The notes: generated by a model not told the origin, from the letters alone. Shown: positions 2,376 through 57,230, numbered from the stretch's first letter. The stretch: DNA of 64,000 bases from Ignavibacteriota bacterium (GCA_016218065.1 JACRFA010000003.1:10090-74089), one strand, 5' to 3'. Translations and numbers: made by a program.

Positions 2376-2516
2376 GAAGAATCCAGAAACCCTGTCGTGC
2401 TCTGATCTGGATTCTTCACTTCGCTTCGCTCGTTCAGAATGACAAATGGGAACTGCACAGTCATTACCTCAAATAGCCACGCCGCTTCTTGGCGTGGTCA
2501 TGAAACTCAGAATGAC
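2376..2516 (+). repeat. Two further hairpin repeat units ending in GAATGAC
   Basis: An 11-bp stem GAAGAATCCAG (2376-2386) / CTGGATTCTTC (2407-2417) is followed by ACTTCGCTTCGCTCGTTCAGAATGAC. A mini-unit GTCATT (2460-2465)...AATGAC (2511-2516) follows, with central hairpin CCACGCC/GGCGTGG (2477-2483 / 2491-2497). Confidence 0.55.
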
Positions 2517-2781
2517 AATCAAAAGAGGTCAAGATGATCTTCTGGCGTTTTCGGGAATCTCCGAGGGGGGTGAGCCAATTTCCAATGATTTCGCGCATGA
2601 GCTAATGAGAAGGTCTCGAAAGATTGTTCATTCACATCCTGTTAGGTGGATAATGAAATCCTCTGCAACGATTGTCGGTACGTGGGGCAGCAGCAAGCAA
2701 AGTGTGCTTCTGTCGACTTCCTTGAGGACGGCTTTCATTATTCGAGAAAATTCATTCTCGCCAAATAGAAGGACAACACGA

Positions 2782-5700
2782 ATGACAGTGTTTGTTTTGA
2801 TACTTCTTCTTTCACTTTCGCTGCCGGCGTATGCGCAATGGCAACAGTTGAGCATTCCTACCACCGCGAATCCGGCAGCGATCAGCGCGCTCCTTCCCGG
2901 CACCGGCAGCGATCTGTACGCGAGCACGCCGACAGGCTTCTATCGCTCAACGAACTCCGGAGTGAATTGGGCACGAAGAGACAGCATCGCCTATAACTTC
3001 AATTCGTTGATTCTCTCTGATGGATTCATCTACGGCGGATATTCCAAGTATGTGATTCGGTCTTCCGATGAAGGCGTTACATGGCAATACGTCAGCGGTG
3101 TTTCGGGGAGTGCAATAAACGAAGTGATCAACAAGTTGTTCACGTTTCGCGGAAACCTCTACGCAAGCGTGCGCGGAAACGCGAGCGGCAATAGTCCCGG
3201 CATCTACATGTCAACCAACGGAGGAACGCTTTGGGAACCTCGCCGACAAGGATTACTTCCCGCCGATGTGAATGTCATTTCAATTGATTCGATGGGCACC
3301 ATGCTCTTCGCTATCGCCCAGCCCGGCAACAATGTGAATAATCGGCGACTCTATCGTTCCATCAACGGCGGATTGCTTTGGATTCCACTCAACGTGTCGG
3401 AGGCATCTCACCTCATGGGAGCAATTGCGGCAAAAGATACGCTGCTGTTCTGCCTCTATGCTTCCATCGGATCCGACGGCGGAGTGCTGGCAACGTCATC
3501 CGACAAAGGCGACTCATGGTCTTTGCGCACGGGCGTGGGGCCGCCGACTTTCAGCCCGACGAGTTTTGCACGCTTCGGTAACGACTTGTACTTCACAACC
3601 GACGGTACGGGACATCCCGGAGAAACGCCAGTGATGAAATCCACCGACGACGGCGCAAGCTTCGCGCCGTTTGTCGATGGGTTGCCACCGCCTTACGTGG
3701 TCGTGTCACGAGAGCTTGTGATCGGTGCCGGATATATCTACCTGAGAACAGCCGCGACGAACGCATGGCGGAGGACATTTCAGCCGCAGGGACAATTGCG
3801 AGTGACGGCTCCGGCGGCGGGCGATGTTGTGTTGGCTGATGCACACTACAGCATAACATGGCTGTCCTTGGGTGTTGATTCGATCAAGATCGAGTTCAGT
3901 TTGGACAACGGACTCTCATACCGGCAATTAGTTCGCAGTGTCGCTGCAAGTCAGACAAGTTATTCGTGGATGGTTCCCGATACGCTCACGACGCGGTGCA
4001 AGATTCGGGTGAGCGCAATTGAGAATGCTTCTCTCAACCATGTGGGAGGGCGGTTCAGCATCAAGGGATATCAGATTACCCGGCTCGATGCGGCCGGCGA
4101 CTATGAAGCGTTTGATCCGAAACTGCATGGCTGGAAATTTGGAAATAGCGGAGCGCAAATGTGGCCGCAATCCTGGTGGAGTCAATTTGATTACGCCGGT
4201 AACGATCCCAACACCGGACGGAAATATTTCTATCCGTTCGACGGCCTGCCGCGGATTCCATCCAGCACGTTTATCGATTGGCCGCTGTTCGTTCAAACGT
4301 TCCAGCCTCAACACTGTTACAAGTATGACGGCTGGGTGACGACAAAGGCGCTTGATGTGTGGTTTGGAGAAACAGACACGACATTTCACGGAAGCTGCGT
4401 GGGCTTCAGTGTCTCCGCGTTTCTCGCCTTCAATAGTCCCGCGACACTTCGCGATTCGTTTCCCTCCATTGGCAACTTCCAATATCTCAACCAGGTTCCG
4501 CTGAACAATGACACGAGAAAGATCGTCAACCAACTGTTTTTTCATCAGGTTGATCCCGACCATTATGCGTATGATGCCCAGCAAGAAATAAAGACTCCGC
4601 GCCAAACTTTGCAGGAATTGAAGGAGATGTTCTTCCCCGGTGTGGATGACAACAGAACGCTGAACATCAGAATTAAGGATCCGAGTTTTGCGCACTCAGT
4701 CATCGGCTACAGACTGAAACCGGAAAACCGCGCGCAAGGAATTTACAAGTTGTATCTTTACGATTCCATTACGCCGGATACCACCATCATCATCACGATC
4801 GATTCGTCGGTCAACGTATGGTCCGGTAGAATTCGGGCGTTCACGGATGGGCTGTATCTTTCGGAACCCGCCAGTACATTTCTCCGGCATCCACGGCTCC
4901 CGGGACAAAATGCCGGTGCGATGTTGGCCGGAACCGGCGGCATCAGGATGTACAATACGCCGAGAGCTTCTGTAACGATCACAGATCAGAACGGTCGCAC
5001 CATTGGTTTTACCGATTCTGCAGTCACGGAAAATATGCCGGGGGCTTTGGCAATTATTCCGCGTGTAGGAGAGTACCATCCGCCGACGGGTTATTTTGTG
5101 CCGGACGGATCGTACTCCATTCGACTCAACAACTTTGCAGATCGCTCATCTTACTTCACCTCATTCGGCGGCGTGGTCAGCTACAACTACAGGCGCTCTG
5201 GCGCACTTCCTTTTCAAACTGACAACTTGAATTTGTCTAACGGACTTTCGGTAAAGAACGGAGATAGCGTCGCAAAGGAAATCAATCTGAAGTCGAGTGT
5301 CTCTCTCGATACTCTTGAGATGACGTTTGAATTGACGCATGTCGTGAGTTCGTCAGGCGATTCTCTCCTGATACGCGGCGAAACCGGCGGCGATCTGATT
5401 GCGGAGAATCATGGGCATCAATCGTCCTATGATTTGAGTTTGATTCTGGGAAGCCCGATCCGGGCTGCTGCGTTTCGACACCCGGGGATTTCATTGGATT
5501 CCAACTCGTCGCATCGCATTGTCCCGTCATGGAGCAGTTCACTCATCCAGCCTGTGAAAATCTTTGTGGATCGAGGCAACAACGGGACAATCGATGATAC
5601 TCTGACCATCGACAATACACTCGACGTGGAGGAACACTCTGCACAAGAAACTCCGGGAAGATTCAATCTTTCGCAGAACTTCCCGAACCCTTTCAATCCG

Positions 5701-5919
5701 ACAACAGAGATCAGATTTCAGATATCAGAAGTCAGCCACGCAACGTTGAGAGTTTTCAATCTTCTCGGACAAGAAGTTGCAACGCTCGTGGATGAAAAGC
5801 TGAATGCCGGAAGTTATCAGGTTCAATTCAAAGCAAAGGGCTTAGCAAGCGGAGTTTACATGTATCGGCTTACCGCCGGCACTCAATCGATATCGAAAAA
5901 ACTTCTTCTCACAAAATAG
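2782..5919 (+). CDS. T9SS cargo: Asp-box (BNR-like) beta-propeller, Ig-like domain, papain-fold cysteine-peptidase-like domain and C-terminal sorting domain
   Basis: The ATG at 2782 gives signal peptide MTVFVLILLLSLSLPAYAQ; the ORF-track extension 2446-2781 is repeat-derived. Asp-box motifs STNSGVNW, SSDEGVTW, STNGGTLW, SSDKGDSW, STDDGASF. Putative Cys in HGSCVGFS and His in AHSVIGY. CTD is NFPNPFNPTTEIRF...YRLTAGTQSISKKLLLTK. Confidence 0.8.
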   Translation: MTVFVLILLLSLSLPAYAQWQQLSIPTTANPAAISALLPGTGSDLYASTPTGFYRSTNSGVNWARRDSIAYNFNSLILSDGFIYGGYSKYVIRSSDEGVTWQYVSGVSGSAINEVINKLFTFRGNLYASVRGNASGNSPGIYMSTNGGTLWEPRRQGLLPADVNVISIDSMGTMLFAIAQPGNNVNNRRLYRSINGGLLWIPLNVSEASHLMGAIAAKDTLLFCLYASIGSDGGVLATSSDKGDSWSLRTGVGPPTFSPTSFARFGNDLYFTTDGTGHPGETPVMKSTDDGASFAPFVDGLPPPYVVVSRELVIGAGYIYLRTAATNAWRRTFQPQGQLRVTAPAAGDVVLADAHYSITWLSLGVDSIKIEFSLDNGLSYRQLVRSVAASQTSYSWMVPDTLTTRCKIRVSAIENASLNHVGGRFSIKGYQITRLDAAGDYEAFDPKLHGWKFGNSGAQMWPQSWWSQFDYAGNDPNTGRKYFYPFDGLPRIPSSTFIDWPLFVQTFQPQHCYKYDGWVTTKALDVWFGETDTTFHGSCVGFSVSAFLAFNSPATLRDSFPSIGNFQYLNQVPLNNDTRKIVNQLFFHQVDPDHYAYDAQQEIKTPRQTLQELKEMFFPGVDDNRTLNIRIKDPSFAHSVIGYRLKPENRAQGIYKLYLYDSITPDTTIIITIDSSVNVWSGRIRAFTDGLYLSEPASTFLRHPRLPGQNAGAMLAGTGGIRMYNTPRASVTITDQNGRTIGFTDSAVTENMPGALAIIPRVGEYHPPTGYFVPDGSYSIRLNNFADRSSYFTSFGGVVSYNYRRSGALPFQTDNLNLSNGLSVKNGDSVAKEINLKSSVSLDTLEMTFELTHVVSSSGDSLLIRGETGGDLIAENHGHQSSYDLSLILGSPIRAAAFRHPGISLDSNSSHRIVPSWSSSLIQPVKIFVDRGNNGTIDDTLTIDNTLDVEEHSAQETPGRFNLSQNFPNPFNPTTEIRFQISEVSHATLRVFNLLGQEVATLVDEKLNAGSYQVQFKAKGLASGVYMYRLTAGTQSISKKLLLTK

Positions 5920-5930
5920 CGAGGAGAGAT

Positions 5931-6029
5931 ATGAAGAGAGTTCTTGTTGTTCTGCTCTTTGTTATCTCGATTTCCTCATACGCACAGCGGTCAAGAATGA
6001 TTCTGATTCTTGCACTCAACGTTTCTTAG
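5931..6029 (+). pseudogene. Remnant 5' end (signal peptide only) of another array paralogue
   Basis: A 32-codon ORF reads MKRVLVVLLFVISISSYAQRSRMILILALNVS*. The signal peptide and AQ cleavage site resemble those of the downstream paralogues (compare MNKVIITLLFIIPFSVHAQWSNDP at 7829). Similarity is lost and the frame breaks straight after the AQ. Confidence 0.4.
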
Positions 6030-6058
6030 CACATCACATCAACAACAAGAGAGATAAA

Positions 6059-7816
6059 ATGAGAGCCATTCTATCCGTCTTCGTTCTTCTTGCGTACGGA
6101 GTTCCGTGCTTCAGCCAGTGGTCAGGAAATCCGGCAGTTAACACACCGATATGCGTTGCATCCTCATTCCAAGATCTTCCTCAACTTGTTTCCGATGGAA
6201 ACGGTGGCGCTATTATCGTATGGGTTGACGGGCGAAACCCTCCCATCAATTCCAATGGAGATATCTACGCGCAACGTATTGGAGCAAATGGATTCGTTCA
6301 ATGGACTGCCGATGGCATTTCTGTTTGCGGTAATGGCGTTACGCAGAACAGACCGCAGATAGTTTCGGATGGAAACGGAGGGGCGATTATTGTCTGGGAA
6401 GATCTCCGGAACAATATCAACGCGAATGACATTTACGCGCAAAGAATCAATTCAAGCGGGGTCGTTCAATGGGTAGCAAATGGAGTTCCCGTTTGTACGG
6501 CGACAGCGAAGCAGGACCGTCCTATGATAGCGACCGATGGTGCGGGCGGCGCAATCATAACGTGGTATGATTATCGGAACAACTCTGCTCTTGCAAACAT
6601 TTACGCGCAACGGATTGACGCAAACGGAACGGCGCTTTGGACATTGAACGGTATTTCTGTTTGTCCCGCCACCATCAATCAGATCGATCCGAAGATCATT
6701 GCCGACGGTGCAGGCGGGGCGATTGTTGTGTGGAGCGATAATCGGTCGAATACCCAATCGGATATCTATGCGCAGCGCATTGCGGGAAGCGGCGTCATCA
6801 CATGGTCCACGAGCGGTCTTGGCATTTGCGTTTTGGGACGCCAACAATGGGCGCCTTCCATTGCGCCCGATGGAAGCGGCGGCGCGATTGTTGCCTGGGC
6901 GGATCAACGCGACACCATCAGTGTTCCTCGTACCGATGATGTATATGTTCAGCGGGTTGATTCAAACGGGAATCGTCTCTGGGCAGCCGGTGGAGTTCCG
7001 ATAAGCACTGGCGCCGGGAATCAAATGCGTCCGATTGTTTTGTCTTCCGGAGATGGTGGTGCAATTATTTCATGGAACGATACACGAAACGGCAGCAGCA
7101 ATCGCGATATCTACGCGCAGCGCGTTGGATCTTCCGGCTCGATCATTTGGTCGGCAAATGGAATTCCGATTTGTACTGCATCGAACGATCAGGATTGGGC
7201 AAATCCAATTTCCGACGGAAATGGCGGCGCGATCATCTCTTGGGAAGATGAACGGGCGGGAGGAACCAGTAGAAATGTGTATGCTCAACGCGTGAATGCA
7301 AACGGTGCTGTGCAGTGGACTGCGAACGGTGTTGCAACCAGTACAGCATCGGGTTACAAAAGTTTTTCACAGATTCTCCCGGTTGGTACTGGTGATGCGA
7401 TTATTACATGGGGAGATGAACGAAGCGGAAGTGATGATCGAAATATCTACGCTCAACGAATTAACGCGAACGGATCGCTGACGAGTGTTCGTTTCGCCGA
7501 AGAGTCTCCATCATCAATCTCATTGGAACAGAACTATCCCAACCCGTTTAACCCAAGCACGCGCATTCGGTTCTCGGTTGCTTTGGGGAATGGGAGAAGG
7601 GGAGAATCGTCCGATGGACTCTTTTCGGAGGAGAAGGTATTGTTGAAGGTGTACGATCTGTTGGGAAGGGAAGTGGCAACTTTGGTGAATGAGAATTTAA
7701 GCGCGGGAAGCCATCACGTACAATTCAACGCACAGGGACTTGCAAGCGGAGTTTACATTTATCGGCTTACCGCCGGCACTCAATCGATTTCGAAAAAACT
7801 TCTTCTCACCAAATAA
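6059..7816 (+). CDS. T9SS cargo, 8 x ~53-56 aa SDGxGGAIIxW / DIYAQR repeat protein (paralogue 1)
   Basis: Signal peptide ending FSQWSGNP, then eight repeats of the type P.IVSDGNGGAIIVW.D.RN....DIYAQRI...G...W..NG..VC.A, then a T9SS CTD. Long stretches are nearly identical in nucleotide sequence to 9554-11290. Confidence 0.85.
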   Translation: MRAILSVFVLLAYGVPCFSQWSGNPAVNTPICVASSFQDLPQLVSDGNGGAIIVWVDGRNPPINSNGDIYAQRIGANGFVQWTADGISVCGNGVTQNRPQIVSDGNGGAIIVWEDLRNNINANDIYAQRINSSGVVQWVANGVPVCTATAKQDRPMIATDGAGGAIITWYDYRNNSALANIYAQRIDANGTALWTLNGISVCPATINQIDPKIIADGAGGAIVVWSDNRSNTQSDIYAQRIAGSGVITWSTSGLGICVLGRQQWAPSIAPDGSGGAIVAWADQRDTISVPRTDDVYVQRVDSNGNRLWAAGGVPISTGAGNQMRPIVLSSGDGGAIISWNDTRNGSSNRDIYAQRVGSSGSIIWSANGIPICTASNDQDWANPISDGNGGAIISWEDERAGGTSRNVYAQRVNANGAVQWTANGVATSTASGYKSFSQILPVGTGDAIITWGDERSGSDDRNIYAQRINANGSLTSVRFAEESPSSISLEQNYPNPFNPSTRIRFSVALGNGRRGESSDGLFSEEKVLLKVYDLLGREVATLVNENLSAGSHHVQFNAQGLASGVYIYRLTAGTQSISKKLLLTK

Positions 7817-7828
7817 ACGGGAGAGACT

Positions 7829-9538
7829 ATGAACAAAGTTATCATTACTCTGCTGTTCATCATTCCGTTCAGTGTGCATGCACAGTGGTCAAATGACCCT
7901 TCGATCAACACGCCCATTTCCGATACGACGTCGGCAGGTTCGGCAACAGGTCCCAAAGCCATTTCCGACGGCAACGGCGGAGCAATTATTGTGTGGAGTA
8001 GAACCGAGATACGCGGCCAGCGTGTAAATGCTTCCGGTGATATGCTGTGGGGACAGTTTGGCAAGGAGGTTGGCAATTCACGCGATCCGGTTTTTCTATC
8101 CTCTCGCGTCAGCCCGGTTGTTGTCTCGGATGACAGCGGCGGAGCAATAATCGCGTACGCCGATTTGAATCAGAGGCGTATCATCGCTGCTTCGAGAGTC
8201 AGACCCGACGGATCAAAAGTATGGGATAGATTGATATGCTTTTCAACTGTCGGCGTGCGTACGAATCCCGCTATTTGCGGAGATGGGAATGGCGGTGCAA
8301 TCATCACGTGGGAAGACCTGCGCAACGGCACGAACAATTCGGACATCTACGCGCAACGCGTGCGCGCCAATGGAACGTTAGCTTGGGATTCGAGCGGCGT
8401 CGCCATCTGTACTGCTGTTCAAAACCAGACTGTTCCCCGCATTGCGTCGGACGGCATGGGCGGCGCCTACATTACGTGGGCTGATAATCGTATTCTGGAT
8501 TCGGACATTTATGCGCAGCGCGTGAACTCGCTCGGACAAACTCAACTGACGGCGAACGGGAGAAGAGTCTGTGTTATGAGCAACAATCCTGCAGGCAGTC
8601 CGAGAATCGTCGCGAGTTCTATCGGGACTGCAATTATTTGTTGGACGGATGGTCGTGAAGGCGGCACGTGGGATGTGTGGGCGCAAAAGGTAAATCCCGA
8701 TACAGTTGAATGGACGCTGAACGGCGTTCCTGTTTGTGTGCAGCCGAGAGCGCAATATAAACAGGACATGGTTTCGGATGGCGCGGGCGGCGCAATTATC
8801 GCATGGGATGACACGAGACGAATTTCTTTCAACGAGGTAGATGTGTACGCCCAACGAATCAGTTCAAACGGGGGATCACTCTGGACACAGAACGGCATTC
8901 CGGTTTGCACACGACCGGGAAATTCGGCGGCGGGTCTTTCTCTCACCCCCGACGGGAACAACGGCGCGGTCATCGCCTGGCAGGATTACAGAAACGCGAA
9001 TACTATAGATCTCTATGCTCAGATGGTCGATCGAAGCGGCGCAATCCGATGGACGGAAAACGGCGTCGCCATCAGCACTGCTCCGAGCTATCAGCAGCTT
9101 CCAACGGTTGCAATAGTCGCCAACCGCGGCGCTGTCTTTGCATGGGTTGACAATCGGCGTGTGCAATACACTGATATTTTCGGGCAAGGAGTTGATTCAA
9201 CGGGAGCGCTTGGCGGAACAACCGGTGTTCTTGAAATCGGAAGTGTGGTACCGGGAGATTTCTCACTCGAACAAAACTACCCCAACCCGTTCAACCCGAG
9301 CACGACCATAAGGTTCCAGATACCAGATGTCAGAAGTCAGAAGTCAGATGTCAGCCGCGTGACGTTAAAGGCGTACGATGTGTTGGGAAGAGAAGTCGCG
9401 ACGTTAGTGAATGAGAATCTGAGCGCGGGAAAATATGAAGCGACGTTCGATGCGAAAGGTTTTGCGAGCGGCGTGTACTTCTACCGTCTGACATCGGGCG
9501 GACAATCACTAACCCAAAAACTGCTTCTCACAAAATAA
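7829..9538 (+). CDS. T9SS cargo, same repeat family (paralogue 2, more divergent)
   Basis: Signal peptide MNKVIITLLFIIPFSVHAQ. Repeats contain SDGNGGAIIVW, DDSGGAIIAY, GDGNGGAIITW and DIYAQRV. CTD is NYPNPFNPSTTIRFQIPDVRSQKSDVSRVTLKAYDVLGREV. Confidence 0.85.
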   Translation: MNKVIITLLFIIPFSVHAQWSNDPSINTPISDTTSAGSATGPKAISDGNGGAIIVWSRTEIRGQRVNASGDMLWGQFGKEVGNSRDPVFLSSRVSPVVVSDDSGGAIIAYADLNQRRIIAASRVRPDGSKVWDRLICFSTVGVRTNPAICGDGNGGAIITWEDLRNGTNNSDIYAQRVRANGTLAWDSSGVAICTAVQNQTVPRIASDGMGGAYITWADNRILDSDIYAQRVNSLGQTQLTANGRRVCVMSNNPAGSPRIVASSIGTAIICWTDGREGGTWDVWAQKVNPDTVEWTLNGVPVCVQPRAQYKQDMVSDGAGGAIIAWDDTRRISFNEVDVYAQRISSNGGSLWTQNGIPVCTRPGNSAAGLSLTPDGNNGAVIAWQDYRNANTIDLYAQMVDRSGAIRWTENGVAISTAPSYQQLPTVAIVANRGAVFAWVDNRRVQYTDIFGQGVDSTGALGGTTGVLEIGSVVPGDFSLEQNYPNPFNPSTTIRFQIPDVRSQKSDVSRVTLKAYDVLGREVATLVNENLSAGKYEATFDAKGFASGVYFYRLTSGGQSLTQKLLLTK

Positions 9539-9553
9539 TACATGGGTTGACCT

Positions 9554-11290
9554 ATGAAAACCATGATTCTCATTCTCGCGTTTTGCGGTTCTGTTTTCAT
9601 CCACGCCCCCTTAGGACACGCGCAATGGTCTGGCAACCCAACGGTAAACACGCCGATATGTGAGGCGATCGAGTTTCAGGATATTCCTCAGATCGTTTCT
9701 GATGGAAGCGGCGGCGCGATTATTGTCTGGGTCGACGGACGTAACCCCCCGATCAATTCCAACGGCGATATCTATGCTCAACGCATTGGGGCAAATGGAA
9801 TTGTTCAGTGGACGAGTGATGGAATTTCTGTTTGCAGTAACGGCATCACGCAAAACAGGCCGCAGATAGTTTCCGACGGAAACGGAGGAGCGATTATTGT
9901 CTGGGAAGATTTGCGGAACAACATCAACGCGAACGATATCTACGCGCAACGAATCAATGCGAGCGGCGTTGTTCAATGGACGGCGAATGGGATTCCGGTT
10001 TGCACGGCGGTAGGAGGCCAGGACCGTCCTCAGATAGTGCACGACAATGCCGGTGGTGCAATCATAACGTGGTATGACAAAAGGAATAATTCCGTTACCC
10101 CAAACATTTACGCCCAACGGATTGACTCAAGCGGAACTGCACTCTGGACTGCGAACGGTGTTTCTGTTTGTCCCGCCACCATCAATCAGATCGATCCGAA
10201 GATCATAGCCGACGGTGCGGGCGGGGCAATTGTTGTGTGGAGCGATAATCGGTCGAATACCCAATCCGATATCTATGCGCAGCGCATTACGGGAAGCGGC
10301 GTCATCAAATGGTCCACGAGCGGACTTGGCATTTGCGTTTTGGGACGCCAACAATGGGCGCCTTCCATTGCGCCCGATGGAAGCGGCGGCGCGATTGTTG
10401 CCTGGGCGGATCAACGCGACACCATCAGTGTTCCCCGTACCGACGATGTTTATGTCCAACGTGTTGATTCAAACGGGAATCGTCTCTGGGCGGCGGGAGG
10501 CGCGCCCGTGAGCGTAGGCAGCGGCAATCAAATGCGTCCGATTGTTTTGCCTTTTGGAGATGGCGGAGCGATCATTTCATGGAATGATACACGGAATGGA
10601 AGTAGCAATCGCGATATCTACGTCCAACGGGTTGGCTCTTCCGGCTCGGCTATGTGGTCGCTCAATGGCGTTCCGATCTGCATTGCGGCAAACGATCAAG
10701 ATTGGGCGAATCCGATCTCCGACGGAAATGGCGGCGCAATAATTTCGTGGGAAGACGAACGGACGGGAGGCACCAGTAGAAATGTGTACGCACAACGCGT
10801 GAACGCAACCGGCGCGGTTCAGTGGACTCTGAACGGCGTAGCAATTGGGACTGCATCTGGCTACAAAAGCTTTTCACAGATTCTCCCGGTTGGCTCGGGT
10901 GATGGGATTATTACGTGGGGAGATGAACGAAGCGGAAGTGATGATCGCAATATCTTCGCTCAACGAATTAACGCGAACGGATCGCTGACGAGTGTTCGTT
11001 TCGCCGAAGAGTCTCCATCATCAATCTCATTGGAACAGAACTATCCCAACCCGTTCAACCCTTCCACCAAAATAGAATTCAGCATTCCTTCCGTAGGGAC
11101 GTTGCATGCAACGTCCCTACGTGTATACGATGTGTTGGGAAGAGAAGTCGCGACGCTGGTGAATGAGAATTTGCAGGCAGGAAAATATGAAGCGATCTTC
11201 GATGCGAAAGGTCTTGCGAGCGGAGTTTACATTTATCGGCTCACCGCCGGTACTCAATCGATTTCAAAAAAACTTCTTCTCACAAAATAG
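9554..11290 (+). CDS. T9SS cargo, same repeat family (paralogue 3, recent duplicate of 6059-7816)
   Basis: Collinear with 6059-7816 at an offset of about 3.5 kb. For example, 10161-10500 versus 6661-7000 differ by only scattered substitutions. CTD ends YRLTAGTQSISKKLLLTK. Confidence 0.85.
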   Translation: MKTMILILAFCGSVFIHAPLGHAQWSGNPTVNTPICEAIEFQDIPQIVSDGSGGAIIVWVDGRNPPINSNGDIYAQRIGANGIVQWTSDGISVCSNGITQNRPQIVSDGNGGAIIVWEDLRNNINANDIYAQRINASGVVQWTANGIPVCTAVGGQDRPQIVHDNAGGAIITWYDKRNNSVTPNIYAQRIDSSGTALWTANGVSVCPATINQIDPKIIADGAGGAIVVWSDNRSNTQSDIYAQRITGSGVIKWSTSGLGICVLGRQQWAPSIAPDGSGGAIVAWADQRDTISVPRTDDVYVQRVDSNGNRLWAAGGAPVSVGSGNQMRPIVLPFGDGGAIISWNDTRNGSSNRDIYVQRVGSSGSAMWSLNGVPICIAANDQDWANPISDGNGGAIISWEDERTGGTSRNVYAQRVNATGAVQWTLNGVAIGTASGYKSFSQILPVGSGDGIITWGDERSGSDDRNIFAQRINANGSLTSVRFAEESPSSISLEQNYPNPFNPSTKIEFSIPSVGTLHATSLRVYDVLGREVATLVNENLQAGKYEAIFDAKGLASGVYIYRLTAGTQSISKKLLLTK

Positions 11291-11304
11291 CGAGGGGTGT
11301 GTTT

Positions 11305-13050
11305 ATGAAAATGATGACTTCAATTCTTGTCCTCGCCGCAACACTCGGCGCACACGCTCAATTGGGCCACGCACAATGGTCAACCAACCCAACGGTGAAT
11401 ACTCGCATCTGCGCCGACACAGGTCGGCAGACGGCGCCCGCTATCATCAGCGATGGTGCAGGTGGTACTATTGTCACATGGGTTGATGGCCGTGCCGGAA
11501 CGCAACTTACCTACGATATCTACGCTCAACGGATTAATGCCGCCGGCGTTGTACAATGGACTACCAACGGTGTTGCGATTTGTACGGCTTCGAGCGATCA
11601 ATTGTCCCCGGTCATAACAAGCGATGGCGCCAACGGGGCGATCATCGCGTGGTACGACTTTCGCAACGGAACGGCGAACCTCGACATCTACAGTCAACGG
11701 GTCAACGCAGCGGGAGTTGTCCAATGGACTTCAAACGGTGTAGCTATCTGCACAGCAACAGCCAGCCAAATGTTTCCTCAACTCGTGAGTGACGGTGCAC
11801 AAGGAGCGATTATCACGTGGCATGATTTCCGCAACGGATCGGGGAACCTCGACATCTACTGCCAACGGGTCAACGCAGCAGGAGTTGTTCAATGGACTTC
11901 AAACGGTGTAGCTATCAGCACAGCAATACGCAACCAATTTTTTCCTCAACTCGTGAGTGACGGTGCACAAGGAGCGATCATCACGTGGTACGACTATCGC
12001 AACGGAACGGCGAACTCCGACATCTACAGCCAGCGGATTAGTGCTTCGGGAGTTGCACAATGGACCGCTGACGGTGTTGCCATTTGTACGGCTTCGAACC
12101 ACCAATTCTCACCGGAACTAATTAGTGATGGCGCCAGCGGGGCGATTGTCGCATGGACTGACTCTCGAAGCGGGAGTGACATCTACTCGCAGCGAGTTGA
12201 TTCAAGCGGGACTGTGCAATGGACTGCTAACGGTGTCGCGATCTGCTCAGCCGCAAATAGCCAATCTGAGCCACACCTCGCCAGTGACGGCGCCAATGGG
12301 GCGATTATTGTGTGGCTCGACTCTCGCAGCGGAACGGATGTGGACCTCTACAGTCAACGGATTACGGCAGCGGGAGCCGTGCAATGGACTGCTGACGGTG
12401 TCGCCATTTGTACAGCTTCGGGTGGTCAATTCACTCCGCTCATAACAAGTGATGGCGTCAACGGAGCGATCATCGCGTGGTATGACCGTCGCAGCGGAAG
12501 TGACGATATCTACGGCCAACGGATTGGTGCGGCGGGAGTTGTGCAATGGACTGCAAATGGGGTTGCGATTTGTAGCGCAACAAACGACCAGGAGTTTCCT
12601 TCCATTGTCGCTGAAGCAAGTGGCGGAGCAATCATCGCATGGTACGATGAACGGGCAAGCTCGTTCGGCGATATTTATGTCCAGAGGGTGAACCCCGATG
12701 GCTCGCTCGGAGGTCCAACTGCAGTGGACGAAATGGATGTTCCTCGCGCATTCACGCTCGAACAGAACTACCCCAACCCGTTCAACCCGTCCACGCGCAT
12801 TGCCTTCTCCCTGCCCGCCGCCCGCCTGCCAGAGGGACAGGGGCAGGCGGGGGTTCAAGGTTCAGGGTTCACGTCCCTCAGGGTGTATGATGTTTTGGGA
12901 CGCGAAGTCGCGACGCTGGTGAATGAGAATTTGAGCGCGGGAAGTTATGAGGTGATGTTCAATGCAAAGGGGCTCGCGAGCGGTGTGTACTTCTACAAAC
13001 TGCAAGTCGGAGAATTTTCTGAAACGAAACGCCTGCTATTGCTGCGATAA
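11305..13050 (+). CDS. T9SS cargo, same repeat family (paralogue 4)
   Basis: The ATG at 11305 sits 7 nt after GAGGGG; the ORF track starts at GTG 11299. Eight repeats of SDGA.GAII.W.D.R.G...DIYSQR....G.VQWT.NGVAICTA, then a T9SS CTD. Confidence 0.85.
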   Translation: MKMMTSILVLAATLGAHAQLGHAQWSTNPTVNTRICADTGRQTAPAIISDGAGGTIVTWVDGRAGTQLTYDIYAQRINAAGVVQWTTNGVAICTASSDQLSPVITSDGANGAIIAWYDFRNGTANLDIYSQRVNAAGVVQWTSNGVAICTATASQMFPQLVSDGAQGAIITWHDFRNGSGNLDIYCQRVNAAGVVQWTSNGVAISTAIRNQFFPQLVSDGAQGAIITWYDYRNGTANSDIYSQRISASGVAQWTADGVAICTASNHQFSPELISDGASGAIVAWTDSRSGSDIYSQRVDSSGTVQWTANGVAICSAANSQSEPHLASDGANGAIIVWLDSRSGTDVDLYSQRITAAGAVQWTADGVAICTASGGQFTPLITSDGVNGAIIAWYDRRSGSDDIYGQRIGAAGVVQWTANGVAICSATNDQEFPSIVAEASGGAIIAWYDERASSFGDIYVQRVNPDGSLGGPTAVDEMDVPRAFTLEQNYPNPFNPSTRIAFSLPAARLPEGQGQAGVQGSGFTSLRVYDVLGREVATLVNENLSAGSYEVMFNAKGLASGVYFYKLQVGEFSETKRLLLLR

Positions 13051-13185
13051 GTAAGATACGCCCCCAGTGCCATTGGGCTTGGAAGCAATGAATGTCTGAA
13101 GGCAAGTTTTGGCTCCCTCGCCTTGCCTCTTTCCATCTCCTTGCCTAATTTCTCACAGCATTGCAATTTCACTCGGGGGGAGTTT

Positions 13186-16100
13186 TTGAACATACACCGG
13201 ATTCGTTTCGCATTACCAGGTCTCGCGCTGCTCGCGTGCCTCCCCTGCGCTTCTTTATCTCAGCATTTCAGTTTTCCCATCGAACATATTGACACGGAGA
13301 ATGGCCTCTCACATAACACGGTCAGTTGTATCACGCAGGACTCCCGCGGTTTCATCTGGATCGGAACGATCGATGGGCTGAATCGATTTGACGGCTACAC
13401 GTGCCGCGTGTTCAAGCACGATCCGCTCAACCCGCATTCACTTTCCAGCAGCTTCATTCACAACATCTCGGAAGATCGCAACGGTACACTGTGGGTCACG
13501 ACGAGAGACGGCGGAGTGAATCGTTTCGACTATCGCGCCGAAACGTTCTCATCCTTTCAAAACAATCCCGCCGATACCACCACCATAGGCGGCAATAAAG
13601 CAGGCGCTGTGTTTCAGGATTCTCGCGGCATCTTATGGGTCACAACAGATGCGGGTCTTCATCGGTTTGACCACGCGGCGGGAACATTCACGCGCTTCTC
13701 TCACAATCCTGATGACGCGTCGTCGTTGAGCAATGATCAAGTAACCGGCATCGCCGAAGATCCCGATGGCACACTCTGGATTGCGACCGACGATGGATTG
13801 AATAAGTTTGATCCACGACGTGGAAAAGTGGTGCTCACCTTCCGCAGCCGCTCCGATGACCGGTCGCTGAGCGACAACAGACTTGTTGGCGTTCTTCTGG
13901 CGCGAAACGGAATGCTCTGGGTTGGCACACGCGGAAATGGCGTGAACATGTTGGACAGAACGTCGGGGACATTCAAACGGTTCACTCCTGATGCAAACAA
14001 CCCGCGTAAGCCAAGCAGCGAGTACGTTGCTCCGATGGTTGAAGATGAGAGAGGAAACATCTGGTGTGCAACGCACGACGGCGTAAATGTGTACGAGCTT
14101 GCGACCGGGATCTTTCATCGGCTTCCGCACGTTCCGAACTCCACTACTTCGATCTCGCACAGCATTATCAGCTCAATTCTTCTCGACACTGTTGGCGATG
14201 TGTGGATTGGAACATGGGGCGGCGGCGTGAACAAACTTGGTCGAAGGTTGCAAAAGTTCAGCGCGATTTCTTCACGAACTGCGCCCGGGGTTTTGCTGAA
14301 CGACTTTGTTCTTGCAATGATGGTGGACCATGAGGGCGCCTTGTGGGTGGGAACGGGCGACGGGTTGAGTCGCAACGTTGCGCGAAGCGGTCAGTCTGCC
14401 GCACCTTCCCAACACCTTCTGCGCAAGATGAGCGTTTGGTGTTTGATGCAAAACGCCGACTCGACGATCTGGGCGGGAACTGGCGATCGCGGGATCGCGA
14501 CATTTACTGCGAACGGGCTGCCTCTTCGGCAATTCGTTCTCGGCGATTCACTCGCGATTGCGGACAACACCATTCGTGCGCTGTTTCGTGATCGTCGCGG
14601 AGTGATTTGGGCAGGTACGCAAGCACACGGCGTCAACAGCTACGACGCCGCAACACGGCGGTGGACGCACTATCCCTTTGGGAAAACGGATGGCACGAGT
14701 GTAAGCGATGAACTGGTGTGGGCAATCAACGAAGACCACGACGGACATTTGTGGTTCGGAACGTATCTCGGCGGATTGAATGAATACGATCCGACGAGCA
14801 AAACGTTTTCATACTATCAACACCGCGCCAATGACTCAACATCGTTGGGGGCGAATGATGTTCGCACCATTTGCGTAACAAGAGCCGGCGAGCTTTGGAT
14901 TGGAACGTATGGCGGCGGCATTTGTCTGCTGAACAAAGCGACCGGAAGGTTTACGCGGGTAACCGAGCGGGATGGATTGGCGAATAATTTTGTGTACGGC
15001 ATACTTGAAGATGACGACGCCAACTTATGGATAAGCACAAACAAAGGGGTCTCGCGGTACAATCCCGCAGCACGAATATTCCGAAACTACACCGCACGCG
15101 ACGGATTGCAGAGTGACGAGTTCAATACCGGCGCGTACTTCAGAGACAGCACCGGCGAGTTGTTCTTCGGCGGCGTCGGCGGGCTGAATCGTTTCTTTCC
15201 TCATGAGGTGTACGAAAACAAACACGTGCCGCCTATTGTCCTTACGTCATTCAAGATTGTTGACAGAGAGCTGACAGGCAAATCACTTTCCTTGCTTGAT
15301 TCGGTTCAGCTCGACTACAGCGATGGATTCTTCTCGTTTGAGTTTGCCGCGCTGGATTATGTCGATCCGCTGCGAAACCAGTATGCGTACATGCTGGAAG
15401 GATTCGATCACGATTGGATATACTCGGGCGCTCGTCGGTACGTCAGCTACACAAACCTCGATCCTGGCAAATACACATTGCGCATGAAAGGCTCGAACAG
15501 CGATGGCGTGTGGAATGAGCAAGGGAAAAGCGTGCTTGTCACCATCGTGCCGCCGTTTTGGATGACAGCGTGGTTCAAGCTGATCGTTGGCGTTCTGATC
15601 GTCGGAACATTTGCAGGAACGGTCCGCTTCATTTCCACGCGCAAGCTGAAAGAACAGTTGCGTACACTGGAGAAGCAGCGCGCACTTCAGGAAGAACGGG
15701 AGCGGATTTCCCGCGACCTGCACGACAATGTCGGCGCGCAGCTTTCCACCATCATCACCGGACTGGAGCTTGCAGAAAAATACGAACAGAAAACCGATCA
15801 TGCGCGCAGCGAGAACCTTCTCGTCAACTTGAAAGATGACGCACGGCTCACCATGGCGCAGTTGCGCGAAACCATTTGGGCGTTAAGTTCGTCGTCGATG
15901 TCGTTGGTGGAATTCTTCGAAAGCATCGAAGCGTACGGCAAGAAGCAAGTGCAGCATCGCATATCGCCAAAGATTTGGTTTTTGTGCGAAGGGAAAGCAG
16001 ACGTCACGCTTTCATCGATACAGGTGCTGCATTTGTTCCGCATCGCGCAAGAAGCACTGACCAATGCACTAAAGCATGCCGATGCGCAGAATATTCACAT

Positions 16101-16311
16101 CGGATTCGAATGCAAGGAAAGGAGGCTGTTGCTTCGCGTAAAGGATGACGGCGTAATTCGGCAGGATCGGAAGGCGGATGAGTTTTCCGGCAGAGGATTG
16201 GCGAACATGGAGCGACGTGCACACGAGTTGAACGGGCGCTTCACCTTCTCACAATCTGAAGGAACGACGGTGGAGATCGAAATCCCGTTGGATGGAGAAT
16301 ACCCCAAGTGA
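13186..16311 (+). CDS. Sensor histidine kinase: two-component-regulator propeller repeats, Y_Y_Y domain, TM segment, HisKA_3 and HATPase_c
   Basis: Repeated ..LW[IV][GT]T..G[LV]N.[FY]D motifs (Reg_prop type). Y_Y_Y region is YAYMLEGFDHDW...YTNLDPGKYTL. TM segment WFKLIVGVLIVGTF. ERERISRDLHDNVGAQL (HisKA_3). ATPase region NALKHA...DDG...GRGLANM. The TTG at 13186 follows GGGGGAG; the ORF track begins at TTG 13123. Confidence 0.9.
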   Translation: MNIHRIRFALPGLALLACLPCASLSQHFSFPIEHIDTENGLSHNTVSCITQDSRGFIWIGTIDGLNRFDGYTCRVFKHDPLNPHSLSSSFIHNISEDRNGTLWVTTRDGGVNRFDYRAETFSSFQNNPADTTTIGGNKAGAVFQDSRGILWVTTDAGLHRFDHAAGTFTRFSHNPDDASSLSNDQVTGIAEDPDGTLWIATDDGLNKFDPRRGKVVLTFRSRSDDRSLSDNRLVGVLLARNGMLWVGTRGNGVNMLDRTSGTFKRFTPDANNPRKPSSEYVAPMVEDERGNIWCATHDGVNVYELATGIFHRLPHVPNSTTSISHSIISSILLDTVGDVWIGTWGGGVNKLGRRLQKFSAISSRTAPGVLLNDFVLAMMVDHEGALWVGTGDGLSRNVARSGQSAAPSQHLLRKMSVWCLMQNADSTIWAGTGDRGIATFTANGLPLRQFVLGDSLAIADNTIRALFRDRRGVIWAGTQAHGVNSYDAATRRWTHYPFGKTDGTSVSDELVWAINEDHDGHLWFGTYLGGLNEYDPTSKTFSYYQHRANDSTSLGANDVRTICVTRAGELWIGTYGGGICLLNKATGRFTRVTERDGLANNFVYGILEDDDANLWISTNKGVSRYNPAARIFRNYTARDGLQSDEFNTGAYFRDSTGELFFGGVGGLNRFFPHEVYENKHVPPIVLTSFKIVDRELTGKSLSLLDSVQLDYSDGFFSFEFAALDYVDPLRNQYAYMLEGFDHDWIYSGARRYVSYTNLDPGKYTLRMKGSNSDGVWNEQGKSVLVTIVPPFWMTAWFKLIVGVLIVGTFAGTVRFISTRKLKEQLRTLEKQRALQEERERISRDLHDNVGAQLSTIITGLELAEKYEQKTDHARSENLLVNLKDDARLTMAQLRETIWALSSSSMSLVEFFESIEAYGKKQVQHRISPKIWFLCEGKADVTLSSIQVLHLFRIAQEALTNALKHADAQNIHIGFECKERRLLLRVKDDGVIRQDRKADEFSGRGLANMERRAHELNGRFTFSQSEGTTVEIEIPLDGEYPK

Positions 16312-16343
16312 TGTATTGCGCAGCGGAGAACTTCACGTATATT
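16300..16343 (+). promoter_or_regulatory. 7-2-7 inverted-heptamer box directly abutting a putative promoter (site s1), upstream of the regulator gene
   Basis: TACCCCA-AG-TGATGTA (16300-16315), then TTGCGC (16316-16321), a 16-nt spacer, then TATATT (16338-16343). Sites s2-s4 have the same architecture. Confidence 0.5.
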
Positions 16344-16381
16344 GTGAGCGGTATTCCAACTTCACACAAACACTGAACTTG

Positions 16382-17077
16382 ATGGACGCTTCTTCTGACC
16401 AGAAAATCCGTATCGCCCTCGTTGAAGACAATGCAACGCTGCGGAAGCGATTCGAGGAGTACTTTTCGTTGTATGAGAGGATTGAGCTTGTTGCTTCGTA
16501 TGCATCCGGTGAAGCAGCGCTCAACAGCATCAAGAAGATGCAGCCGAGCCGCCTGCCGCACATCGTGTTGATGGATATTGAGCTTCCGAATATCTCCGGC
16601 ATCGAAACGACGCAGAAGTTGAAAGAGGAGTTCCCCGACATTGAGGTCATGATGCTGACGGTGTTTGAGGATCAGAACAAGATTCTGCAATCGATACAGG
16701 CCGGAGCGTCGGGGTATTTACTGAAGGATGAATCACCGGACAGCATCGTTGAGGCGTTGGAAGAATGCCTGCGCGGCGGCGCACCGATTTCGCAATCGCT
16801 TGCAAGAAAAGTTCTCGGTATGTTGCGCGCGCCATCGGCCGGCTCATCGGCAGCCACAATGACAAGCAGCGCCAATGAGGACTCATTTGACCTGAGCGAT
16901 CGTGAAATTGAATTGCTTCAGGGCCTGGTACAAGGAGAAGTCTATACAACGCTCGCCGCGAAATTCTTCATCAGTCCACACACCGTTCGCACGCACATCC
17001 GCAATATCTACAAGAAGCTTCAGGTACACAACCGCGCCCACGCCGTCCGCATCGCGATAGAGAAGAAGCTGGTGTAA
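16382..17077 (+). CDS. NarL/LuxR-family response regulator (REC plus HTH_LuxR)
   Basis: MDASSDQKIRIALVEDN...VLMDIELPNISG...LTVFED...GYLLKD, with C-terminal LSDREIELLQGLVQGEVYTTLAAKFFISPHTVRTHIRNIYKKLQV. ATG at 16382 is preferred over the ORF-track start at 16292. Confidence 0.9.
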   Translation: MDASSDQKIRIALVEDNATLRKRFEEYFSLYERIELVASYASGEAALNSIKKMQPSRLPHIVLMDIELPNISGIETTQKLKEEFPDIEVMMLTVFEDQNKILQSIQAGASGYLLKDESPDSIVEALEECLRGGAPISQSLARKVLGMLRAPSAGSSAATMTSSANEDSFDLSDREIELLQGLVQGEVYTTLAAKFFISPHTVRTHIRNIYKKLQVHNRAHAVRIAIEKKLV

Positions 17078-17190: not shown

Positions 17191-18462
17191 ATGCGACGTA
17201 TGATATTCTTTGCGCTGTCGATTTCTTTGATTTGCCAATTTGCTTGGGCGCAATGGCAACGCGTCACCAACGTGAACGCGGGTGCGACCGGCAGAGTTGC
17301 TTCTCACGGCAGCGCGGTGTTTCTCTACGGCTATGAAGGGGGATACAAACTCCATCGTTCCACGGATAATGGAACAACGTGGGTCGATATTTCTTCCAGT
17401 GCGACCGCGGCGTTTGTCGACATCTTCAGCTTCAACGGCATGTTGTACGCTTCTTATCTTAGCACCGTCTATACATCCACCGATCTCGGTCAAAGTTGGA
17501 CGCCGCTTTCGGGTGTTACTGTAACTGGCACCGGGGCGCTTCTCGGCTTTGCATCGGACGGAACGACGTTGTATGCATTCTCGAATCGCAAATCCGTTTT
17601 CAGATCCACGAACAACGGCGCGTCGTGGACGGAATTGCTCATCAATAGCACGGCAAACCTGCTCATTATTGATTTCGCTGCGCGCGGGAATCGCTACGCG
17701 GCAGTTGTTGCAAACGCAGGCGCTTATATCTCCGAAGACGCGGGCGCAACGTGGACACTCCGCAATCCGACAGTAGGTGCGGGCGGCATCTATGGTTTCA
17801 ACAATACTCTCTTCGGCCTCTCGTTTGGCGGCGGAGTGTTCACGATGCAAAACGGAAGTTCGAGTTGGATTGCTGCGAATAGCGGTGTGCCCAGCAACGG
17901 GTCGTTAGTCGTTCCGAGGGCGCCCGCGTCGCAGGGAAGCGCGATCTACTTGGGGTTTCAACAACTTGTTTCGAATTACGGCAGCGTTGTGAGATCAACC
18001 GACGGCGGCGCCTCGTGGACAGAGCTTGACACGGCCGGACTTCCTACGTCGGTTATTCCCGGAGTAGGGGGTACGCGCTATGTTGCAGCCACACCCACAC
18101 ACGTTTACTATTTCTACTACGGTGGTGCAACTCAAGTTGGCGTGTACAGGACGGCCGGTTTGCCGAGCGCAGTGCGCGAGGTTGCATCGGAAATTCCCAA
18201 TGGGTTTTCACTCGAACAGAATTATCCGAATCCGTTTAATCCGTCCACGCGCATCGCTTTCGCGGTTCAGGTTTCAGGGTTCACGTCCCTCAGGGTGTAC
18301 GATGTGTTGGGAAAGGAAGTGGCAACGTTGGTGAATGAGAACTTGAACGCGGGAAGTTACGAGACGACGTTTGATGCGTCCGGTTTGGCAAGCGGTGTGT
18401 ACTTCTATCGTCTGGAGGCTGGAGCGTTTTCACTGACCAAGCGGTTGATGTTGTTGCGTTGA
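17191..18462 (+). CDS. T9SS cargo, Asp-box/BNR-like beta-propeller (~420 aa)
   Basis: GGGGGAG Shine-Dalgarno site and a signal peptide ending AWAQ. Asp-box motifs STDNGTTW, STDLGQSW, STNNGASW, SEDAGATW, STDGGASW. CTD is NYPNPFNPSTRIAF...YRLEAGAFSLTKRLMLLR. Confidence 0.85.
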   Translation: MRRMIFFALSISLICQFAWAQWQRVTNVNAGATGRVASHGSAVFLYGYEGGYKLHRSTDNGTTWVDISSSATAAFVDIFSFNGMLYASYLSTVYTSTDLGQSWTPLSGVTVTGTGALLGFASDGTTLYAFSNRKSVFRSTNNGASWTELLINSTANLLIIDFAARGNRYAAVVANAGAYISEDAGATWTLRNPTVGAGGIYGFNNTLFGLSFGGGVFTMQNGSSSWIAANSGVPSNGSLVVPRAPASQGSAIYLGFQQLVSNYGSVVRSTDGGASWTELDTAGLPTSVIPGVGGTRYVAATPTHVYYFYYGGATQVGVYRTAGLPSAVREVASEIPNGFSLEQNYPNPFNPSTRIAFAVQVSGFTSLRVYDVLGKEVATLVNENLNAGSYETTFDASGLASGVYFYRLEAGAFSLTKRLMLLR

Positions 18463-23443: not shown

Positions 23444-23555
23444 ATCCCTTCCTTTTCCGTGTTCACAAAATTTTCGTTTCACAAACTCATTGAGCTTTTC
23501 TCCGCGCAAACGTACATTGTTAGTGCAATTCACTCAATTTTGTTCGGGGGAAACG

Positions 23556-45955: not shown

Positions 45956-45962
45956 TCGGCAC

Positions 45963-46460: not shown

Positions 46461-46748
46461 TGTTCGATCGAGAGGCTGATCTCAGGCTCGTGAGACGACG
46501 TGCTGCTTTGCTCCTTCACAATGAGAAGTCTCGATGCGGGTGGAGTCGGTGGTGTTACCCATGTGTGTTACTATATGTGATGATGGTGAAAGCGTGATGG
46601 GCATTGCAAATAAAAATCTGAACACCTATCTTACGCCGTGTTCTGTGAATTGTGAATTGATAGTCGTGCCCCTCGTAAGTGGCCCGCATCTATTTCAAGG
46701 GGAAATTCGCAACACGAACACTCCTTCACGACATGGATTGCGGGCTTC

Positions 46749-50837: not shown

Positions 50838-50907
50838 CGCAGCTGTACTACTTGCAAGCGGAAACTCCGCTGCAGACTGCTGTTGAAAATGAACAAAGGG
50901 ACAAACT

Positions 50908-53942: not shown

Positions 53943-53946
53943 GAGA

Positions 53947-55011: not shown

Positions 55012-55068
55012 ACGAAGCATGAGATCAAGACATAATTCATCATTCATCCCCAACAACGTGAGGTCACT

Positions 55069-56046: not shown

Positions 56047-56063
56047 GCGTAGGATCACAGAAG

Positions 56064-57224: not shown

Positions 57225-57230
57225 AGAGCT

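Follow-up and report, generated by a model that had tools for sequence, protein, structure and literature searches.

Four consecutive genes, designated g1 to g4, occupy positions 6059 to 13050 of a 64,000-nucleotide (nt) stretch of DNA from an Ignavibacteriota bacterium (GCA_016218065.1 JACRFA010000003.1:10090-74089), which is referred to here as the window. Each gene encodes a signal peptide, eight copies of one repeat, and a C-terminal type IX secretion system (T9SS) sorting domain (CTD), and structural modeling led us to expect that each protein forms an eight-bladed β-propeller. What is new is a very abundant repeat lineage that has neither a curated model nor a studied member; the fold, the route of secretion, and evolution through tandem paralogues all belong to kinds already known. 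We have considerable confidence in the structural and secretory part of our explanation, in which secretion itself and anchoring at the surface are inferred. When structure, secretion, binding, and the history of the array are taken together, the balance tips only slightly toward the explanation as a whole.

Repeat unit and layout of the four proteins

A hidden Markov model (HMM) was built from the repeats of the window and run on all open reading frames (ORFs) of the 64 kb. Exactly eight domains were detected in each of g1 to g4, and the remaining ORFs of the window had no match. With [IV]Y[AS]Q as the anchor motif, the units were spaced at 53 to 59 amino acids (aa), and DNA repeat finding detected a matching period of 168 nt. 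The alignment of 30 repeats yielded the consensus xQxxPxIxSDGxGGAIIxWxDxRxGxxxxDIYAQRVxAxGxxxWTxNGVxICxA, in which W, D, R, and Q were invariant. These results essentially reproduced the consensus and the period of ∼53 to 56 aa that had been read from the sequence alone in an initial annotation of this DNA, and both its count of eight copies and its layout of signal peptide, repeats, and T9SS CTD applied to all four proteins. The same annotation had described one conserved Cys per repeat, which proved to be an overstatement: Cys was present at five to seven of the eight positions in each protein and was replaced by S, G, or T at the others. A thiol or disulfide role for this residue was judged unlikely because these substitutions occur in several blades.

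The repeats differed in how well they were conserved. Domain scores were 68 to 95 bits in g1 and 49.7, 13.9, 86.8, 75.9, 64.8, 77.8, 71.8, and 53.0 bits in g2, where the second repeat is degenerate (13.9 bits) yet readable as VSPVVVSDDSGGAIIAYADLNQRRIIAASRVRPDGSKVWDRLIC. Neighboring 168-nt blades of g4 were 85% (11620-11837 versus 11788-12005) and 71% identical in DNA over the region 11620-12173 and were far more alike than the blades of g1 to g3. This similarity suggests a recent amplification or homogenization of the g4 blades, as by intragenic conversion. Homogenization and amplification of blades are known behaviors of propellers (PMC9218822).

Predicted propeller fold

The g4 protein was modeled with AlphaFold2 (AF2) using an alignment of 24 sequences. 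The model had a mean predicted local distance difference test (pLDDT) score of 85.9 and a predicted template modeling (pTM) score of 0.76, with pLDDT values of >90 throughout the repeats. Assignment of secondary structure with DSSP gave four strands (8, 7, 7, and 4 residues) in each of eight consecutive sets, and the repeats were followed by a β-sandwich CTD. The mature N terminus, QW..NP.VNT.IC.A, is a copy of the last part of the unit and was confidently modeled, and repeat 8 lacks exactly that last part. The N-terminal segment would complete repeat 8, and the chain therefore starts and ends at one point of the unit, as is expected of a closed ring. Each protein is expected on this model to be a single closed eight-bladed β-propeller, in which the N-terminal segment may be a classical velcro strand or strand A of blade 1.

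The numbers of repeats in related proteins were then counted. Among the 120 best homologues, 57 had 8 or 9 repeats, 61 had 14 to 16, and only 2 had a number in between, and a search with a repeat-only profile gave copy numbers of 8, 16, about 25, and 37. As repeat numbers in the homologues are quantized at 8 or 16, a set of eight repeats corresponds to one propeller. An eight-bladed propeller had been guessed in the initial annotation, which proposed structure prediction as a check; the eight sets of four strands in the AF2 model and the homologue counts both agreed with this guess, and a repeated fold was indeed predicted.

Comparison of the model with the PDB by Foldseek returned β-propellers only, at 8 to 14% identity. 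The best matches were lectins of the PLL/PHL/CV39L type (6gxs, 5mxg, and 8q83; E = 3e-10 to 5e-8; TMt, 0.60 to 0.68), headed by the seven-bladed CV39L (6gxs; E = 3.4e-10; TMt, 0.68), with PHL and PLL5 also among the best. These matches were followed by sialidases and by GH43, GH145, PL25, PL42, and DPP4-type propellers. The PLL/PHL/CV39L lectins are secreted and highly symmetric and have one binding site per blade interface. They have seven blades and no T9SS CTD, whereas g1 to g4 have eight blades, share 8 to 12% identity with them, and gave no sequence-level match. Membership in the PLL/CV39L family was rejected, the likeness being limited to fold and symmetry. The eight-bladed pyrroloquinoline quinone (PQQ) dehydrogenases were also considered and rejected. 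There was no match to PF01011 or PF13360, no PQQ enzyme was among the top 50 Foldseek matches, and the Trp-docking motif A-x-D-x-x-x-G-x-x-x-W of PQQ enzymes differs from the local A-Q-R-V-x-A-x-G-x-x-x-W, which is one residue longer and has no Asp.

Relationship to known families

Searches of Pfam with g1 to g4 and with an artificial sequence of eight consensus copies produced passing scores for the CTD only. Partial matches to DUF1505, DUF4114, Vein_beta-barrel, and others were dismissed as spurious, with no stretch that was individually significant. A sequence search of the PDB with one of the proteins and a search with the 24-sequence profile likewise detected only CTD matches (FlgD and PorU). 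The g1 product was 100% identical over its full length to NCBI protein P0256, from an Ignavibacteriae metagenome-assembled genome (MAG; 86-kb contig), which is annotated as a "T9SS type A sorting domain-containing protein."

Among curated repeat models, TIGR04275 (beta_prop_Msarc) alone detected the repeat with real statistical support; it represents a β-propeller repeat family that is likewise without a known function. This model matched six stretches of g4 (77.6 bits; E = 4.3e-22) and gave significant matches to 22 of 24 family members (best E = 2.7e-26), with scores of 15.0, 13.8, and 18.7 bits for g1, g2, and g3, respectively. All four proteins fell below the 85-bit cutoff and hence are not members by the curated rule. 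The model has 40 positions, of which only positions 3 to 32 were matched, while the unit in the window has 56 aa. The match supports a β-propeller ancestry for the repeat, and on these profile comparisons the repeat is best placed as a distinct, uncurated lineage of the β-propeller superfamily with TIGR04275 as its nearest relative. The initial annotation had called the repeat unrecognized. This description stands in that no Pfam family covers the repeat, no well-characterized domain of Pfam or NCBIfam matches it, and NCBI names only the CTD; it needs correction in that TIGR04275 is related, although below its cutoff for all four proteins.

Two further families resemble the four proteins. The first, NF053835 ("PDIAV motif-containing lipoprotein"), gave weak multirepeat matches to g1 (E = 2e-7) and to g2 (aligned over model positions 42 to 323) and matched 8 of the 24 family members (best E = 1e-9). 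The scores for g1 to g4, 19 to 31 bits, were far under the 90-bit cutoff, and, unlike these lipoproteins, g1 to g4 have signal peptidase I sites, a T9SS CTD, and no lipobox. The model length of 458 is close to 8 × 56, which suggests a similar eight-repeat propeller. A literature search on the PDIAV/NF053835 family produced nothing relevant.

The second family comprises SBBP (PF06739) proteins with a T9SS CTD, which have the same layout of signal peptide, eight 54- to 55-aa repeats, and type A CTD and whose genes share arrays with family members in a related MAG. The blade pattern of SBBP, h-x-h-x-D-x-x-G-x-h-h-h ... D-h-x-x-x-h ... G-x-x-x-W, is also that of the window repeat, but the signatures differ, GNVYVTG and DYATIKY in SBBP as opposed to GGAII-W-D-R and DIYAQR. 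The SBBP HMM had no match at an E value of ≤1 for g1 to g4 or of ≤10 for the eight-copy consensus. Alignment by hhalign with the eight blades of one SBBP protein, encoded beside a family member at a related locus, had the same register over 41 columns at a probability of 1.3% (P = 0.04), and the match was not significant; an hhalign comparison with an SBBP protein as such was not significant either. Membership in SBBP was rejected.

The extent of the family was examined with a repeat-only profile, such that CTD matches were avoided, and counts were made on clusters at 50% identity. There were 27,743 clusters at an E value of ≤1e-3, 16,624 at ≤1e-10, and 7,859 at ≤1e-30. Named bacterial relatives came from Ignavibacteriae, Bacteroidota, Krumholzibacteria, Eisenbacteria, Margulisbacteria/Saganbacteria, and Chloroflexota, and archaeal relatives came from Lokiarchaeia/Helarchaeota (Asgard) MAGs. 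All named relatives were "hypothetical" or had been named by a CTD or FlgD-Ig tail. No paper describing the family was found in a search of the literature on eight-bladed propellers and the T9SS. Pfam has no model for this well-defined repeat, although the clusters that contain it number in the tens of thousands and are spread over many uncultured phyla, and the proteins take their current names from the T9SS tail or from spurious faint matches (DUF1491, Lipoprotein_15, and DUF4114). A formal definition of the family would tidy the annotation of many metagenomes, and neither the array nor the family overturns current understanding.

Signals for export by the T9SS

A type A sorting domain was detected at the extreme C terminus of all four proteins. 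Scores for g1 to g4 were 30.3 to 40.5 bits with PF18962 (cutoff, 27; g1, 37.9) and 30.9 to 42.8 bits with TIGR04183 (cutoff, 23; g1, 37.6). The C-terminal β-sandwich aligned with the PDB chains of the RgpB, PorZ, and PorU CTDs. The passenger domain, in contrast, is unrelated to that of any studied type A cargo of the T9SS, and the two seven-bladed propellers of PorZ belong to a family other than that of the g1 to g4 repeat.

Signal peptides were read from the sequences of all four proteins, each with a basic n-region, a hydrophobic h-region, and the site A/S↓QW, and the AF2 model of g4 had a helix at residues 2 to 20. A Gln immediately follows the predicted cleavage site in 4/4 proteins, in agreement with the "Q-rule" of Bacteroidetes. 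The Q-value of Ignavibacterium album is 77%, and a T9SS is possibly present in Ignavibacteriae (PMC5837995).

Conservation and candidate functions

High-entropy positions of the repeat were located in two loops, s4-s1 and s2-s3, which a β-meander topology places on one face and which differ among blades and among paralogues; conserved positions were located in the s1-s2 turn (SDGxGG), in strand s3 (DIYAQR), and at the G of the s3-s4 loop. In an alignment of 24 full-length homologues, the invariant columns were all repeat-motif positions, and no blade-specific conserved residue was detected, which argues against a single asymmetric active site. Polar and aromatic residues were conserved in every blade, within the motifs W-x-D-x-R, D-I-Y-x-Q-R, and G-x-x-x-W. 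Extra domains in 13 longer members were PKD, Big_5/Big_13, FG-GAP, Laminin_G_3, HYR, LTD, DUF11/DUF7619, an InlB-B-like domain, and a CTD. By these domain assignments, the fusion partners are extracellular adhesion or spacer modules.

We propose that each protein would be exported by the Sec pathway and cleaved to leave an N-terminal Gln, that it would fold into a single closed eight-bladed ring, and that the T9SS would carry it across the outer membrane through its type A CTD. By analogy with studied T9SS cargo, the CTD would then be removed and the protein attached to the cell surface. The propeller would act there as a nonenzymatic, multivalent binding module resembling a lectin or adhesin. 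Repeated sites would be made up of the aromatic and charged residues conserved in each blade, the variable loops on the same face would tune specificity, and the four paralogues would offer three or four different binding surfaces. Multivalent binding at the surface, which is suggested by the symmetric conservation, the fusion partners, and the nearest folds, is a tentative proposal whose probability we place somewhat short of even. It is rather doubtful whether the repeat family goes further and constitutes a previously undescribed class of multivalent lectins or adhesins, in which each ring would have as many as eight equivalent sites and tandem arrays would serve as a specificity panel for environmental glycans or cell binding. 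Should the propeller prove to bind multivalently, environmental FCB-group bacteria would have in it a widespread module for surface recognition, and its high symmetry would recommend it as a protein scaffold.

Several points weigh against this explanation. No genes for the T9SS machinery (PorK/L/M/N, SprA, PorU, and PorV) were found in the 64-kb window, and no characterized homologue was found in the repeat family. The Foldseek matches were generic, with about 10% identity and query-normalized TM scores of ≤0.45, and many of them were propeller enzymes. The residues conserved symmetrically could be purely structural, as in inter-blade salt bridges and Trp docking. The 13 longer members, among which no catalytic fusion domain was detected, are a small sample. 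Finally, the probable cotranscription of g1 to g4 is read from their spacing alone. The gaps g1-g2, g2-g3, and g3-g4 were 12, 15, and 8 nt and held no terminator-like sites; a scan for sigma-70 promoters and terminators detected no enrichment relative to shuffled sequences, and such a scan is uninformative for the host phylum.

The enzymes among the structural matches (sialidases, GH43, GH145 BT3686, PL25 ulvan lyase, PL42, and S9 peptidases) raise the alternative that the propellers are themselves polymer-degrading enzymes with a central active site, such as a new glycoside hydrolase, polysaccharide lyase, or other hydrolase. All of these matches had five to seven blades, however, at about 10% identity, and the absence of blade-specific invariant columns noted above does not fit one central site. 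The surroundings of the array include T9SS cargo genes, several of them BNR/Sortilin-like, along with two Reg_prop/Y_Y_Y kinases; BNR-CTD genes are also associated with family members at two related loci (L081 and L082), and the gene upstream of g1 had a weak match, below the cutoff, to glycosylhydrolase model NF045728 (E = 1.6e-10). For the proteins of the array, in contrast, no CAZy-type or peptidase match in Pfam or NCBIfam rose above noise, and none of the 13 sampled longer members had a catalytic fusion partner. An enzymatic role was judged improbable, and the interpretation of the neighboring BNR/Sortilin cargo and Reg_prop/Y_Y_Y kinases as parts of a polymer-utilization island was judged equally so.

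Conservation that recurs in every blade is also typical of fold-determining motifs, and the propellers might instead be abundant, ligand-less proteins that build an outer layer of the cell or hold other T9SS cargo, with residues conserved for the stability of the fold. The great abundance of the family, in which two or more propellers per chain often occur with Ig-like spacers, would suit such a coat or scaffold, as would a Cys position that is freely S, G, or T in the manner of a packing position. The results contained nothing specific to self-assembly, however, and the presence of four divergent paralogues under purifying selection, together with separate g1-like and g2-like lineages elsewhere, points to differentiated roles. 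A purely structural function was considered quite improbable.

Duplication, gene conversion, and related loci

The g1 and g3 proteins were 85% identical, and every other pair was 44 to 51% identical (g2/g4, 46%). In DNA, g1 and g3 were collinear at an offset of exactly 3507 nt and 81 to 82% identical overall. The synonymous divergence (dS) of this pair was 0.67 and the nonsynonymous divergence (dN) was 0.107, giving a dN/dS ratio of 0.16, which indicates purifying selection; dS was saturated for all other pairs. The initial annotation had correctly noted the collinearity of 6059-7816 and 9554-11290 at an offset of about 3.5 kb. It had also noted the near identity of 6661-7000, which was 94.1% identical to 10168-10507; the partner named at the time, 10161-10500, was 7 nt out of register.

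Identity between g1 and g3 was distributed as a mosaic, with about 80% generally, 94 to 97% per 100 nt over 6654-6927, and 92 to 96% over about 7360-7550. Two tracts were delimited in these regions (Table 1). The longest identical run in 2000 codon-column permutations was 77 nt, and the runs of 110 and 99 nt in the two tracts both exceeded this null maximum. Synonymous divergence was 0.05 to 0.18 in the tracts. The proportion of synonymous differences was 0.05 to 0.12 in tract 1 compared with 0.45 to 0.78 elsewhere in g1/g3, and tract 2 covers the last part of repeat 8 as well as the linker that leads to the CTD. Near-identical tracts on a background dS of 0.67 indicate gene conversion acting on an older duplicate and not a recent duplication. 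On these alignments, g1/g3 is a lineage-specific old duplicate in which gene conversion still exchanges sequence, and g2, g4, and the ancestor of g1/g3 are ancient paralogues, the array having apparently grown by single-gene duplications. A two-gene segmental duplication of g1-g2 to g3-g4 was rejected, as g2 and g4 resemble one another no more than they resemble g1/g3. The initial annotation had interpreted the array as a recent segmental duplication, and this interpretation failed: only g1 and g3 are close, at a dS of about 0.67, and dS for g2/g4 is saturated. The word "recent" fits the two conversion tracts only, as the overall DNA identity of g1 and g3 is 81 to 82%. The array is a small, clear-cut case in which gene conversion keeps a tandem duplicate partly identical.

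Related loci were compared with the array. The sequence available for locus L081 is 8 kb only and contains, in this order, an orthologue of the 2446-5919 gene (66.5% identity over 765 aa), a single family member with 82% identity to g3 and 77% to g1, a BNR-CTD gene, and a Reg_prop kinase. Copy number at this syntenic site thus varies between relatives, with one copy in L081 and four in the window, although the L081 genome may have further copies elsewhere; such a comparison had been proposed in the initial annotation, and a difference was found. Locus L083 has four consecutive CTD genes, in the order SBBP type, g2-like, SBBP type, and g1-like, downstream of an extracytoplasmic function (ECF) sigma factor gene and Ser/Thr kinase genes. 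The g2-like gene was 55% identical to g2 and has a degenerate repeat 2, as does g2, and the g1-like gene was 64% identical to g1. The g1-like and g2-like lineages are old and have persisted apart from each other, a pattern that favors differentiated roles. At L083, a single array combines different propeller lineages, and the SBBP-type (PF06739) T9SS cargo genes are at 4444-6108 (eight 54- to 55-aa repeats) and 7897-9990. A BNR-CTD gene recurred in association with family members at both L081 and L082.

The conversion tracts and the difference in copy number (one versus four) could also be seen as parts of a surface-variation system, in which paralogues would swap segments and thereby alter an antigen or receptor exposed at the surface, for example, in escape from phage or predators. 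The initial annotation had raised surface variation as one meaning of the array. Replacements in the old pairs were enriched on the variable face (68 to 77% versus 45 to 54%; p, 2e-5 to 9e-4), but those between g1 and g3 were not (14/124 versus 33/320, or 11% versus 10%; Fisher p = 0.73). The lack of enrichment in g1/g3 and the dN/dS ratio of 0.16 provide no evidence for ongoing diversification and do not support the earlier suggestion. Conversion between g1 and g3, moreover, homogenizes and does not diversify, dS is saturated in all other pairs, and the flanks of the array were free of recombinase genes, invertible promoters, and cassettes that were silent or truncated. A surface-variation system was considered highly improbable. 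An expansion of dosage or of specificity of a binding function is possible.

Genomic surroundings

The array is part of an island of T9SS cargo genes that extends over roughly 30 kb, the features of which are listed in Table 1 with those of the array.

Table 1. Coordinates of the four genes, the gene-conversion tracts, and neighboring genes in the window
Feature	Position	Strand	Description
g1	6059-7816	+	585-aa ORF; repeats, nt 6173-7528; CTD, aa 493-582
g1 signal peptide	aa 1-19		Cleavage ...CFS↓QW
g2	7829-9538	+	569-aa ORF; repeats, nt 7955-9259; CTD, aa 484-566
g2 signal peptide	aa 1-18		Cleavage ...VHA↓QW
g3	9554-11290	+	578-aa ORF; repeats, nt 9680-11035; CTD, aa 497-575; close g1 paralogue
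g3 signal peptide	aa 1-23		Cleavage ...GHA↓QW
g4	11299-13050	+	583-aa ORF; very regular repeats, nt 11428-12756; CTD, aa 491-580
g4 signal peptide			Cleavage ...GHA↓QW
Gene-conversion tract 1	6654-6927	+	Partner, 10161-10434; 110-nt identical run, 6818-6927
Gene-conversion tract 2	7450-7548	+	Partner, 10957-11055; 99-nt identical run
T9SS cargo gene	2446-5919		Upstream of g1; NF045728 match under cutoff
BNR/Sortilin-like T9SS cargo genes	17191-18462; 29411-30676
T9SS cargo gene	19648-23385	+	1245 aa; only CTD recognized by Pfam or NCBIfam
T9SS cargo gene	23490-25043
Reg_prop/Y_Y_Y/HisKA_3 (HATPase) sensor kinase genes	13123-16311; 25319-28486		Paralogous
LuxR-type response regulator gene	16292-17077		Overlaps first kinase gene by 20 nt
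TrmB-type regulator gene	18717-19550

For g4, the ATG at 11305 is the likelier start, with a Shine-Dalgarno-like GAGGGG motif 7 to 8 nt before it. A regulatory link of the Reg_prop kinases to the cargo genes is possible, and L081 also has a Reg_prop kinase nearby. ORFs 46749-48272, 48269-49651, and 34503-36104 had no family match.

The 139-nt spacer before g1 contains, at about 5931-6029 (+), a short ORF that is preceded by GGAGAG and encodes MKRVLVVLLFVISISSYAQRSRMILILALNVS, a complete signal-peptide-like sequence up to YA↓Q with an early stop. This ORF may be what is left of the 5′ end of a cargo gene that has been lost, or it may encode a tiny leader peptide. The CTD tails encoded by the 2446-5919 gene, g1, and g3 have nearly the same last 26 residues, GLASGVY[MI]YRLTAGTQSISKKLLLTK. 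The DNA of this tail at 5745-5929 was 74 to 79% identical to 7642-7826 and 11116-11300, and the upstream cargo gene was otherwise unrelated. The CTDs of different cargo genes may be exchanged or homogenized in this genome.

Upstream of the cargo island, an IS200/RAYT-type tyrosine transposase (815-1261, −) and an ECF-type sigma factor (1552-2124, −) were tentatively recognized by eye, and the L083 array is likewise preceded by an ECF sigma factor. Farther downstream, the gene at 38732-41470 (+) encodes a 912-aa protein with an N-terminal patatin-like phospholipase region and a C-terminal Omp85/BamA-like barrel. Another CTD protein was also observed farther downstream, as was an exopolysaccharide biosynthesis cluster (43616-61336, +) with a Wzc-like tyrosine autokinase, several GT4 glycosyltransferases, and an AsnB-like amidotransferase.

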